DNA from: Candidatus Iainarchaeum sp.
Lineage (GTDB): Archaea > Iainarchaeota > Iainarchaeia > Iainarchaeales > JAZDFD01
Direction of reading: 5' to 3'
Assembly (NCBI GenBank): GCA_043808155.1
Contig: JAZDFD010000035.1
Span: 1-21,053, forward strand
Length of the DNA stretch: 21,053 nucleotides
In this document: in pieces, positions 17,542 through 20,337 of the stretch
Layout of the letters: every line of letters starts with the position of its first letter
How positions within the stretch are numbered: the first letter of the stretch is position 1
The notes under the pieces: model-generated
What the model was told of the DNA's origin: nothing
Databases searched by the model: none
What the model saw: the letters and a program-made list of their open reading frames with translations, nothing else
Program-made: the position numbers and the translations under genes

Positions 17542-18270
17542 ATGAGTAAAATAAATTATATCTCCATTCCCTTTGATGGAAATGCAGAAAGAAAGGGTTG
17601 TGCAAAAGCACCATCATTTCTTTACAAATACCTGCGTGAAAGATTTAGTGACATCGAATATGCTGAAAAATTCAAAGGAAAAACAAATTCAGATTTAGAG
17701 AAATTTACTTCAGAAGTTGCAAAAAATCCAAAAATAAAAAAACCATTTTTTATTGGCGGAAATCATGTAATTTCTTTCTCTATTTTCAAATCACTCATCC
17801 AAACAAATCCAAAATTGGATTTCATTTATTTAGATGCGCATTTTGATGCTGATGACATTAAACTATTCAATTCCTCTGTTGTAAAACACAGTTATAATTT
17901 ATCAAAACCAATAATTCTTAATATTGGTTCACGTGAAAAATATCAAAAAGATAAACCAAAATTTATTGACACAGTTCCTGCAATGCAGTTCTCGGAAAAA
18001 TCACTTTTAAAAAAACTCTCAAAATTCAAAAATCCAGTTCACTTATCAATTGACGCTGATGTTTTAGAACCTGCAATAATGCCGGGAGTTTCACACCCTG
18101 AAGCCTTTGGATTAACTCCGCGTGAATTGCACGATTCTCTAAAAGTGATTTTTGCAAAATGTAATGTCGTTTCCGTGGATTTAGCAGAATTCAACCCAAC
18201 TGTTGAGAAAAAATACTCTTTAGAAACCTTTGCCTCAATAGTAAATTTAGTTTCCCAGTTTTGGAGATAA
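17542..18270 (+). CDS. Arginase/agmatinase family ureohydrolase (shortened)
   Basis: IPFD, GGNH, LDAHFD, SIDADVLEP..PGV..PE..GL, DLAEFNP. ATG 17542 is preferred because the track's GTG at 17533 lies inside the AGGTGA SD. Confidence 0.88.
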   Translation: MSKINYISIPFDGNAERKGCAKAPSFLYKYLRERFSDIEYAEKFKGKTNSDLEKFTSEVAKNPKIKKPFFIGGNHVISFSIFKSLIQTNPKLDFIYLDAHFDADDIKLFNSSVVKHSYNLSKPIILNIGSREKYQKDKPKFIDTVPAMQFSEKSLLKKLSKFKNPVHLSIDADVLEPAIMPGVSHPEAFGLTPRELHDSLKVIFAKCNVVSVDLAEFNPTVEKKYSLETFASIVNLVSQFWR

Positions 18271-18271
18271 C

Positions 18272-18527
18272 GCGAGCAAAAGGCGAGCAAGTGCTACCGA
18301 AGGTGCACCCGCACTCGCCGGGCGTTCGGCGGGGACGTAGTGTAGTCTGGTCTAGCATCGGTGCTTCGGGGGTACCTGACGGGAGTTCAAATCTCCCCGT
18401 TCCCATGCGCGCTTTCGATCGCGCGTGCCGAAATATGTGTGCTGCACTCTTTCAATTGACAATTGAAAGGTGCCCATTTCAACGAAGTTGAAATAGGGTT
18501 TCGTTTTGCTCAACAGCACAGTAATAT
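18272..18527 (+). ncRNA. Candidate large structured RNA (or DNA) element enclosing tRNA-Pro
   Basis: Seven helices outside the tRNA, including two leader-trailer pairings (see findings); the 5' flank 18271-18330 is 41/60 G+C in an AT-rich genome. Confidence 0.6.
18331..18405 (+). tRNA. tRNA-Pro(CGG), archaeal type, no intron, CCA not encoded
   Basis: Acceptor GGGGACG/CGTTCCC + A73; D arm GTGT-AGTCTGGTCTA-GCAT; anticodon arm GGTGC-TT CGG GG-GTACC (anticodon 18367-18369); T arm GGGAG-TTCAAAT-CTCCC. Confidence 0.96.
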
Positions 18528-18696
18528 GTCGTACATTTATTAACTTTTCCAACACAAGTATTTAGTGCTAGTTCTTGCACACTTGTAGAGATTTCTTCCG
18601 CGATTTTTTTGGTACTTTTTCCTGCACATGCAAAAGCTTTAAATAAAACTATCTTCTTAGTATTAATCTGTTTTTAAAGTTTTAAGTGGGGTTGAA

Positions 18697-20337
18697 ATGA
18701 AAAAAGTAAAATATGTTGTAGTAACTGGTGGTGTACTTTCTGGTCTGGGCAAGGGAGTTGTAACTTCCTCAATTGGAAAACTAATTCAGGCACAAGGCTA
18801 CAATGTATCAATTGTAAAAATAGACCCCTATATCAACGTTGATGCAGGAACAATGCGCCCTACTGAACATGGAGAAGTGTATGTAACTGATGACGGCGGA
18901 GAAACAGACCAGGACATCGGAAACTATGAACGATTTTTAGATCAGTCACTTTCACGAAAACACAACATCACAACAGGGCAGGTATATTTAGAAGTAATCC
19001 AGAGAGAAAGAAACTTAGAATTCGAAGGAAAATGCGTTGAAGTAATTCCTCACATTCCCAATGAAGTTCAAAGAAGAGTGAAAGAAGTTGCAAAGCATGA
19101 TAATTCTGATTTTGTAATTATTGAAATCGGCGGAACAGTCGGCGATTACCAGAATGTTTTATTTTTAGAAGCTTTCAGAGAAATGAATTTACACACTGAC
19201 AGAGTTGTGTTTGTTCATGTCGTGTTTTTACCAATTCCCTCAAATCTCGGGGAAATGAAAACAAAACCCGCACAGCACTCAGTAAGAGAATTAAACAGTA
19301 TTGGAATCCAGCCTGATTTTATAATTGCAAGATCAAGATGTGATATTGATGATGTCAGAAGAAAGAAACTCTCTCTGTTCTGTAATGTGCTTCCTGAAAA
19401 TGTAATTAATGCTCCTGATTTAAAATCAATTTATGAAGAACCTTTGGTTTTTGAAAAGCAGACTCTTGTTAAAAAAATCCTTGCTGAATTTAAACTGAAA
19501 TACAAAAAAGACACTCCAAAAATGAAAGAATGGAGACGCTTTGTTTCAAAAATGGGTAAAGTAAAGAAAAAAGTCAAAATTGGTATTGTGGGAAAATACT
19601 TTGATATTGGGGATTTCACATTAGATGATTCTTATATTTCTGTTATTGAAGCAGTAAAACACGCATCTTGGAAATATGGACTTTGCCCCGAAATTGAATG
19701 GTTAGATTCCAAAAAGTTTGAAAATGGAAAATCCTCGCTGAAAGAACTGAAGAAACTTGATGGAATTATAATTCCTGGCGGTTTTGGAAGTTCCGGAGTT
19801 GAAGGTAAAATAAATGCAATTCGCTTTTGCAGAGAAAATAAAATTCCCTTCTTGGGTTTGTGTTATGGTCTGCAGTTAGCAGTTGTTGAATTCTCAAGAA
19901 ACGTAGCTGGGATGAAAAATGCAAATTCAACTGAAATAAATCCTGACACCAAATATCCTGTTATTGATTTACAGCCCGAACAAAAAGAATTAATGAAACA
20001 GCATAATTACGGAAACACAATGCGTTTAGGTGCTTATCCTGCAAATTTAAAAAAGGGTTCACTTGTCTGGAAACTTTATGGTAAGAAAGACAAAGTTTCA
20101 GAGCGTCACAGACACAGATATGAAGTCAATCCTGAATTTGTTCCAGTGTTAGTTGAAAACGGACTGATGTTCTCTGGAGTTTACCCCAAAAGAAACTTAA
20201 TGGAATTTATTGAGTTAAAGAATCATCCTTTCTTTGTTGCAACTCAGGCACATCCTGAGTTAAAATCAAGACCTCTGAATCCGCATCCTTTATTTTTAGG
20301 ATTCATAAAAGCAGCTTCTGAAAGAAAGAAAAAGTGA
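18697..20337 (+). CDS. pyrG: CTP synthase
   Basis: VTGGVLSGLGKG, KIDPYINVDAGTM, EIGGTVGD, KTKPAQHSV, GLCYGLQ, ERHRHRYEVN, TQAHPELKSRP. Confidence 0.99.
   Translation: MKKVKYVVVTGGVLSGLGKGVVTSSIGKLIQAQGYNVSIVKIDPYINVDAGTMRPTEHGEVYVTDDGGETDQDIGNYERFLDQSLSRKHNITTGQVYLEVIQRERNLEFEGKCVEVIPHIPNEVQRRVKEVAKHDNSDFVIIEIGGTVGDYQNVLFLEAFREMNLHTDRVVFVHVVFLPIPSNLGEMKTKPAQHSVRELNSIGIQPDFIIARSRCDIDDVRRKKLSLFCNVLPENVINAPDLKSIYEEPLVFEKQTLVKKILAEFKLKYKKDTPKMKEWRRFVSKMGKVKKKVKIGIVGKYFDIGDFTLDDSYISVIEAVKHASWKYGLCPEIEWLDSKKFENGKSSLKELKKLDGIIIPGGFGSSGVEGKINAIRFCRENKIPFLGLCYGLQLAVVEFSRNVAGMKNANSTEINPDTKYPVIDLQPEQKELMKQHNYGNTMRLGAYPANLKKGSLVWKLYGKKDKVSERHRHRYEVNPEFVPVLVENGLMFSGVYPKRNLMEFIELKNHPFFVATQAHPELKSRPLNPHPLFLGFIKAASERKKK

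Follow-up and report, generated by a model that had tools for sequence, protein, structure and literature searches.

The window, by which we mean the whole 21,053-nt stretch of DNA that was analysed, belongs to a host genome of 1.08 Mb (35 contigs, 88% complete, 35% G+C) in which ARAGORN finds 45 tRNAs, many of them with long introns. Its sole tRNA gene encodes tRNA-Pro with the anticodon CGG and lies at 18331-18405; it is intron-less and has no encoded CCA. This gene is on the + strand, as are the modules around it and the two promoter-like motifs located below. The tRNA-Pro that the earlier note had placed here is confirmed by the ARAGORN call and by the Rfam tRNA model RF00005, which in E-value mode scores 48.1 bits (model positions 1-71, full length), a cloverleaf above the gathering threshold of 29 bits. 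When the whole window was scanned in gathering mode, no family was reported, not even the tRNA. The identity of the gene with the tRNA-Pro(CGG) orthologues of relatives reaches 89%.

The gene sits in a G+C island, since the stretch 18272-18527 has a G+C content of 0.60-0.64 within a 35% G+C genome. As the earlier note had stated, its leader is 68% G+C (0.68 over 60 nt) and starts right after the upstream stop codon, which is the TAA of an arginase-family ORF ending at 18270. The region folds well: for a 263-nt stretch, the folding energy is -97.3 kcal/mol as against -84.7 +/- 5.0 kcal/mol for shuffles (z = -2.5; 1 of 200 shuffles equal). Between 18100 and 18750, no Rfam family other than tRNA was matched at E <= 10.

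Within the 3′ end of the arginase-family ORF, a candidate archaeal TATA box, TAAATTTA, can be read at 18242-18249, 22 nt upstream of the first base of the leader. Since archaeal TATA boxes usually lie at -26/-27, this is a possible TATA box of a transcript that would start at the first leader base and run into the tRNA. Downstream, pyrG (18697-20337, identified by Pfam) is preceded by a promoter-like motif, AAAAGCTTTAAATAAAA, read from the sequence at 18632-18648, which is met again some 30 nt ahead of tRNAs that have AT-rich leaders. It probably marks the start of the next transcription unit, so that the stretch discussed here would end upstream of it.

We found that 18272-18527 is a mosaic of three repeat modules, called L1, T1 and H2, around the tRNA gene. 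The leader module L1 (18272-18331; nhmmer E = 4.6e-14; covariance model R2, 71.6 bits at 18266-18330) comprises the double box GCGAGC-AAAA-GGCGAGC at 18272-18288, a variable hairpin (“b top”, 18291-18298 with 18302-18308) and, at the 3′ end, a cap hairpin (18316-18320 with 18327-18331) that takes in G1 of the tRNA (G18331) as its final base. In the host genome, nhmmer and R2 together give 35 L1 matches. Among these paralogues, 4-5 pairs of “b top” covary with changes on both sides, and the cap is an invariant hairpin; covariation links its closing pair to the base that follows the module (C-G in 15, A-T in 14, exceptions in 2 of 31). The cap runs precisely up to tRNA +1 or to a 3′ exon; L1 ends adjoin five full tRNAs, one 3′ exon and a second leader type, and further neighbours are tRNA 3′ fragments, antisense tRNA ends and other DNA. 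As in the window, an AT-rich, TAAT-like stretch is found just ahead of the first box in other L1 copies.

The trailer module T1 (18407-18527; nhmmer E = 2.6e-8 for its 5′ part) scores 29.4 bits with model R1, a low value because H2 is nested in the loop of its second hairpin. It is composed of a first hairpin, hp1 (18407-18411 with 18420-18424), a pseudoknot between the hp1 loop (18414-18417) and the linker (18429-18432), an AU helix of four pairs that closes an internal loop (18433-18436 with 18524-18527), and a second hairpin, hp2 (18439-18444 with 18514-18519), whose loop carries a conserved motif at 18499-18513. Both hairpins and the pseudoknot are supported by covariation in the family, and the AU helix by the family structure. 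The host genome holds 42 T1 matches (nhmmer and covariance models, E <= 0.1). In a structure alignment of 48 copies, 20 from the host genome and 28 from relatives, 93.3% of the cells are paired and 18 of the 22 pairs show changes on both sides. None of 500 shuffles paired as well, a test that overstates the structural support because paralogue alignments share ancestry, and slid controls were 28-42% paired. One loop-linker position covaries perfectly (U-A 35, G-C 5, C-G 4, unpaired 0). Because the hp1 loop covaries with the downstream linker, T1 is predicted to open with an H-type pseudoknot. The first hairpin begins one spacer base past tRNA position 73 or, in introns, past position 37. A T-run is often found behind T1.

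The third module, H2 (18445-18504; nhmmer E = 3.1e-13), consists of two tandem long hairpins and is nested in the T1 hp2 loop, an arrangement also found elsewhere in the host genome at C14:53260, C13:16449 and C20:7331. H2 is nearly palindromic and its loci, about 11 in the host genome, are matched on both strands; the stem sequences of the copies differ and the hairpin frame is constant. Alternatively, H2 occupies the T1 linker or stands in place of the L1 variable hairpin. At six loci, the T1 model matches one strand and the L1 model the other, so L1 and T1 are related units in opposite orientation. They follow one plan: a cap hairpin with a pseudoknot forms one end, a variable hairpin comes next, and the far end is TAAT-like. 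In the window both caps point toward tRNA-Pro. We rejected the rule that the cap end always lies nearest the tRNA, since three L1-type units have their TAAT-like end against a tRNA 3′ end. The combination of L1, tRNA-Pro, T1 and H2 is unique to the window locus; the modules recur separately.

These families allow the helices drawn earlier from the single sequence to be sorted. All the inverted pairs that had been named are present, the palindrome of helix d included. Helices d (T1 hp1), e (T1 hp2, with an inverted pair spanning 18438-18444 and 18514-18520), f (18449-18458 with 18460-18469, 10 of 10 pairs) and g (18473-18483 with 18487-18497, 91% paired), the last two forming H2, are family features, each supported by covariation among paralogues. 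Hairpin b stands in part: its top covaries, but outer b (GGCGAG/CTCGCC, 18282-18287 with 18314-18319) is paired in 66% of the cells among L1 paralogues, shows no double change and competes with the L1 3′ hairpin. Because 274 nt of the region contain 20 inverted pairs of 6 nt or more, some single pairs of 6-8 nt, the class to which helices a and c belong, are likely due to chance. Helix a (18274-18281 with 18504-18511, 8 of 8 pairs) had been proposed to join the far ends of the structure. It finds no support in the family and links the variable L1 box to the conserved T1 hp2-loop motif, which contains its 3′ arm and is also present in T1 copies with no L1 nearby; we regard it as incidental. Helix c (18325-18330 with 18427-18432) overlaps the L1 3′ hairpin and the T1 pseudoknot, both better supported by covariation. 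At the only three loci that carry both modules, the pair examined is U-A (the window), C-G (tRNA-Leu(CAA)) and U.G (tRNA-Ala(UGC)); helix c may form but is not established. The idea that a three-way junction buries the cut sites of RNase P and RNase Z depends on helix c, which competes with two family-supported pairings.

The leader and trailer motifs of the window flank many of the 45 host tRNAs. By our tally, about 16-20 of the 45 tRNA loci carry modules of the family, and most host tRNAs have none. The 42 T1 matches, classed with a crude ORF rule and gene model, lie directly 3′ of a same-strand tRNA (10), inside ARAGORN-called tRNA introns (4), reversed at a tRNA 5′ end (1), within 120 nt of a tRNA (6), reversed just upstream of ORF starts (5) or right after ORF stop codons (2), and 14 are unclassified. 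About half of the copies are at, inside or within 120 nt of tRNA genes and, because by simple arithmetic these genes make up only ~0.4% of the genome, the association of T1 with tRNAs is far beyond chance. The earlier suggestion of a structured element that targets tRNA genes comes near to these findings, the modules being strongly enriched at tRNA borders and in introns. A self-processing or regulated pre-tRNA, which had also been suggested, may or may not be realised here; no ribozyme family was matched. The flanks of tRNA-Pro(CGG) vary: among the orthologues of 10 relatives, a T1-like trailer is present in two and L1 about 85 nt upstream in one, and the remaining flanks are AT-rich or unrelated.

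Across the order, T1 was found in 46 of 121 genomes (up to 22 copies; 23 of the 51 high-quality genomes) and L1 in 37 of 121 (up to 30 copies), the number of copies per genome ranging from 1 to 30. No T1 or L1 match was obtained in the nine genomes that a phylum-wide sample added from families absent from the order sample, a set too small to draw a boundary, and the exact 27-letter pattern of the T1 core, a weak search, matched no viral contig. Among 38 T1 matches of relatives, five lie in introns, where they sit directly after the anticodon loop, five directly 3′ of a tRNA and one reversed at a 5′ end. The same tRNA species can be affected in different families: T1 occupies the same intron position of tRNA-Glu(UUC) in two families, and T1 trailers follow tRNA-His and tRNA-Ala(UGC) in two families. 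Some copies of the family, none of them those of the window, thus lie at tRNA position 37/38, the position of BHB introns. In one relative (G040), the 144-nt intron of tRNA-Ala(CGC) is made of T1 (61 nt), 16 nt, L1 (61 nt) and 8 nt. Drawn by eye, the introns of tRNA-Glu(UUC) and tRNA-Tyr accommodate a central helix with its two 3-nt bulges, but no canonical outer intron helix.

Many copies are bounded by direct repeats. Following sequence recurs as a copy of at least 13 nt within 500 nt upstream for 14 of 32 L1 ends, and for 18 of 41 T1 matches 12 nt or more of the upstream flank recurs downstream, counts that carry no shuffle control and include some matches due to chance or tRNA paralogy. 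Individual loci are more telling. At an AT-rich, promoter-like site, direct repeats of 29/30 nt surround a 113-nt L1+H2 insert and abut both of its ends. Repeats of 20/22 nt surround a 58-nt T1 and duplicate a gene's ribosome-binding site together with its start codon, and the duplicated 3′ ends of tRNA-Arg(CCU) and tRNA-Glu(CUC) form repeats of 20/20 and 20/21 nt, respectively. The 3′ end of a C/D-box-like sRNA is also repeated around an element. Moreover, a promoter-adjacent T1 is present in one species and the matching intergenic region of five congeners is empty. Some L1 copies are followed by orphan tRNA 3′ fragments, which are one arm of the direct repeats that flank the element. The layout at such sites is the tRNA, the insert and then a second copy of the tRNA's 3′ portion, reaching from the T-loop to position 73. 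A split or permuted tRNA was considered and rejected: tRNA-Pro is intact and the orphan 3′ fragments copy the adjacent tRNA's own 3′ end; a 7-nt motif search for matching 5′ pieces returned only noise. One locus holds a 96-nt tandem duplication rather than an insertion repeat, and tandem T1 copies exist in relatives.

For the L1 and T1 copies of the window, no flanking direct repeat was detected. Around the whole L1-tRNA-T1 unit, the best repeat found by eye is 10/12 (18241-18252 versus 18531-18542); it does not abut L1 and was not counted. Among intron copies, flanking repeats beat shuffles in 0 of 7. It is from family membership only that we infer the insertion of the two window copies.

The units share with MITEs their small size (~60-120 nt), non-coding nature and dispersal in many copies, as well as target-site duplication, with 20-30 nt repeats abutting the ends at four checked loci. 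They depart from MITEs in that single units have unlike ends in place of terminal inverted repeats, inverted caps at both ends occurring in T1+L1 pairs only, and in that the flanking direct repeats of the family vary in length from 13 to 30 nt, which is atypical for MITEs. These repeats would be unusually long and variable for the product of a transposase. In the 88%-complete host genome, searches for the Y1 transposase (PF01797) and for reverse transcriptase and Cas1 gave no match, and the RAYT (Y1 HUH) association required of REP/REPIN elements is missing there. One full tyrosine recombinase gene and one partial match were found, neither beside a module. An origin from TnpB omega-RNA was rejected, the flanks and ends of the two tnpB loci being unlike T1 and L1. 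On the side of RNA processing, the genome encodes RNase P RNA (124 bits), which answers a question raised by the earlier note, RNase Z (382 bits) and one copy of EndA (180 aa).

The mismatches tolerated in the stems bear on the strand at which the fold matters. G.U and A.C mismatches number 13 versus 15 in relatives, 2 versus 6 in the host genome and, in a tally of tRNA-sense copies only, 4 versus 7, a comparison that cannot separate RNA-level from DNA-level selection if both strands are used. Copies are conserved in both orientations relative to neighbouring genes. Selection on one strand would favour G.U pairs; because there is no G.U excess and both orientations are conserved, the fold does not appear to be tied to one strand. 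This pattern suits a fold that matters for propagating the elements themselves, or on both strands, more than one that acts as a functional RNA of a single strand, and RNA-level roles would be compatible with it.

Altogether, we consider it probable that the locus is an ordinary tRNA-Pro(CGG) gene flanked by mobile, folded, G+C-rich mini insertion elements of one superfamily. Insertion with long target duplications and dispersal through the genome and the order are observed, and the elements occupy tolerant sites: leaders, trailers and introns of tRNAs, positions before ribosome-binding sites and positions after stop codons. In the window, L1 and T1 would be co-transcribed with tRNA-Pro, probably from the TATA-like box at 18242-18249. 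L1 would then form a 5′ leader that RNase P cuts off, and T1+H2 a 3′ trailer that is lost after RNase Z cleavage, just as EndA would excise the intron copies. The conserved fold would serve the propagation of the element, or make transcripts that contain elements harmless, rather than build a functional RNA of 250 nt, and copies would persist where host RNA processing or target duplication keeps the adjoining gene intact. The strong conservation of the fold and the presence of T1 on the same tRNAs across families fit a retained function as well as a selfish spread.

A broader proposal can be made more tentatively. The modules could represent an undescribed superfamily of pseudoknot-capped mini insertion elements that land by preference at the borders of stable-RNA genes and constitute one route of tRNA intron gain; their copies would survive through excision by RNase P, RNase Z or the splicing endonuclease, and the cap would either enable excision or be recognised by an integrase. 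Some introns at the canonical position consist almost wholly of module units, whose sister copies elsewhere have fresh target duplications.

It seems to us rather unlikely, even though several observations speak for it, that the modules are instead cis-acting RNA elements domesticated for the metabolism of pre-tRNA and mRNA. In that case the pseudoknotted caps would mark or shield the sites of processing, bring leader and trailer together through helix c, block exonucleases or end transcription. Indeed, caps lie 0-2 nt from mature ends at fixed spacing, the L1 cap ending exactly at tRNA +1 or the 3′ exon, T1 accompanies the same tRNA species in different families, the structure is strongly conserved, and helix c shows one compensatory change among the three paralogous cases. 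However, a cis-acting signal would hardly occur in both orientations with respect to transcription and beside protein genes, be present in L1-type units with the TAAT-like end against tRNA 3′ ends, and be absent from most host tRNAs. Nor does the transcribed strand show the G.U excess, helix c has to compete with two family-supported pairings, and the insertion repeats, together with a presence that varies between congeners, point to mobility.

We give very little credence to the idea that T1, L1 or both are small self-cleaving ribozymes that free tRNA ends, intron copies then supplying 2′,3′-cyclic phosphate and 5′-OH ends to RNA ligase. HDV-like theta ribozymes sit 3′ of phage tRNAs, and T1 resembles them in being folded, pseudoknotted and placed immediately 3′ of a tRNA. 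Its site directly 3′ of the discriminator base or directly after the 5′ exon, its compact pseudoknot with invariant loop and linker bases and its many copies, which other small ribozymes have too, would suit such a function. On the other hand, no Rfam ribozyme family matched 18100-18750 at E <= 10 or any of 16 T1/L1 loci at E <= 1, and the topology, a simple H-type pseudoknot plus a hairpin, is not the nested double pseudoknot of HDV-like ribozymes. Reverse-oriented copies, and those beside protein genes, are also at odds with theta ribozymes, the reversed ones being equally conserved, and the genome has its own RNase P RNA, RNase Z and EndA.

Finally, the earlier reading of 18272-18527 as a single multi-helix, pseudoknotted functional RNA of ~250 nt with the tRNA as a domain is the least probable of all, for although every proposed helix is present and the folding energy beats that of shuffles, the flanks consist of modules that can be separated and have dozens of copies away from tRNA-Pro, their full combination occurs at this locus alone, the flanks differ around the orthologues of the 10 relatives, and the T1 loop motif used by helix a is found in copies with no nearby L1.

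Elements that share some of these features are known. Thermoproteales reportedly possess transposable tRNA introns, which Fujishima et al. are said to have described in 2010. A mobile-element model of tRNA gene disruption was put forward by Sugahara et al. 2012 (PMC3293823). As far as the consulted portions of this literature go, related intervening sequences common to different tRNA genes are shared with the modules, as are tRNA fragments beside inserted DNA and the creation of tRNA introns by mobile DNA. In contrast to both, the modules also fill leaders, trailers and mRNA flanks, their ends are defined, their fold is conserved and direct repeats flank them; the introns here are all at the canonical position, and no adjacent recombinase-carrying element was found.

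REPs are bacterial and tied to RAYT (Y1) transposases. They are not known to make target duplications or to be concentrated at tRNA borders and within introns. The modules differ from them by their long duplications and by a host genome in which no Y1 transposase was found. In the parts of the sources consulted, bacterial REP, BIME and REPIN elements are G+C-rich extragenic palindromes present in many copies (PMC2817692, PMC3184786), and REP/BIME and the modules are alike in occurring in both orientations, in forming mosaics of several modules and in keeping their stems by compensatory change.

Among Archaea, Pyrobaculum calidifontis has MITE-like elements that carry C/D box sRNA-like sequences (Lui et al. 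2018, PMC6009581). In the text examined, these have conserved, imperfect inverted repeats on either side of a small stable-RNA gene and are present in 15 copies in one species; they are proposed to mobilise or diversify RNA genes, and target duplication is not mentioned (PMC6009581). On that basis, both kinds of element are short, non-coding, multi-copy and archaeal, but the sRNA of P. calidifontis lies inside the element whereas the modules described here lie outside or within tRNA genes, and they are single-capped, order-wide, pseudoknotted and associated with long target duplications. Integrative elements that target tRNAs hold the duplicated 3′ part of the tRNA in attL/attR, according to the consulted part of the source (PMC3218864). 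The layout tRNA - insert - tRNA 3′ copy is therefore common to both, but by the same partial comparison the inserts here are gene-less and 60-180 nt long, and the same duplication occurs at non-tRNA targets. Our search of the full-text literature found no description of L1, T1 or H2 modules, and supplementary tables could hold relevant data. As far as the portions consulted go, none of the systems compared unites a covarying pseudoknot cap, long variable target duplications, an order-wide spread and the occupancy of tRNA leaders, trailers and introns.

The headline of a novel tRNA-containing ncRNA thus falls, and a family of folded mini-elements, found in about one in three of the genomes sampled from the order, takes its place. 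In annotation, the modules account for orphan tRNA 3′ fragments, for decoy start codons ahead of genes and for G+C-rich islands that, if the modules were overlooked, would be mistaken for new ncRNA genes. One and the same family is met in two states, as recent insertions with target duplications and as the bulk of tRNA introns at the canonical position. How archaeal tRNA genes come by their introns is a question that a 2026 preprint, in its consulted part, still regards as open, and these elements are a concrete candidate for the route.

Besides the L1 repeat module, which leads into the tRNA-Pro(CGG) gene of the window and ends in a 3′ cap hairpin, the genome (G000) carries a second type of tRNA leader, L2, at C34:12195, C28:16873, C6:22236, C1:10353, C6:35270, C24:25660 and C12:37630. 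L2 terminates at its 3′ end in a hairpin of 5 bp, which either borders on tRNA position 1 or takes it in, and this hairpin covaries (CGAGG/CCTCG versus CAAGG/CCTTG). The tRNAs lying downstream of L2 are tRNA-Val, Asp, Arg(GCG), Trp, Pro(UGG), Glu(CUC), Cys and Ile(UAU). As for the window itself, the whole-length Rfam scan at gathering thresholds returned no match, the tRNA included; this tRNA scored 48 bits against a threshold of 29 bits in an E-value scan of a sub-region, and seems to have been dropped by the fast filters of the whole-window scan.

L1-type caps also lie downstream of a C/D-box-like sRNA gene on the minus strand of C12 (about 70035-70100, locus L207). The gene has a GTGATGA and a CTGA box, and a GCC/GGC stem closes its ends. 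Two repeats of its 3′ end lie downstream, each directly after an L1-type cap, and similar GATGA...CTGA stretches follow such caps in two relatives (L197 and L202).

The trailer module T1 forms tandem arrays of T1-containing units with a period of ~72-100 nt, at C12:29510-29659 in G000 and, among relatives, at L043 (G018 C4:39122-39291), L066 (G010), L065 (G101) and L063 (G091). The same short motif (CYTCAGTCCGCC) precedes T1 in four genomes, and its opposite strand would encode a gene start (M..DGRTE). Reversed T1 copies lie directly upstream of ribosome-binding sites at C31:6384-6485 (L205, 45-146) and at four genes of the cluster at C28:47.9-56.4 kb. Upstream of the reversed element at the C31 and C28 loci, target duplication has left behind a decoy ATG with its ribosome-binding site, from which short ORFs open and read into the element. 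Regarding mobility genes, the G000 assembly has two intact TnpB-like ORFs of 413 and 414 aa (C23:24585-25826 and C7:8169-9413), and no Y1 transposase was found in it; the flanks of both ORFs bear no resemblance to L1 or T1.

Two T1-like units, one inside the intron and one as trailer, accompany the tRNA gene on the minus strand of C20 (3956-4108), labelled tRNA-Pyl(CUA) by ARAGORN. Its anticodon loop, read by eye as CUUCUAA, makes tRNA-Arg(UCU), otherwise absent from the G000 tRNA set, the more likely identity. Finally, the CTP synthase of the window (18697-20337) shares about 60% identity with Patescibacteria (bacterial) and Woesearchaeota MAG proteins alike, a hint that this archaeal lineage carries a pyrG of bacterial type.
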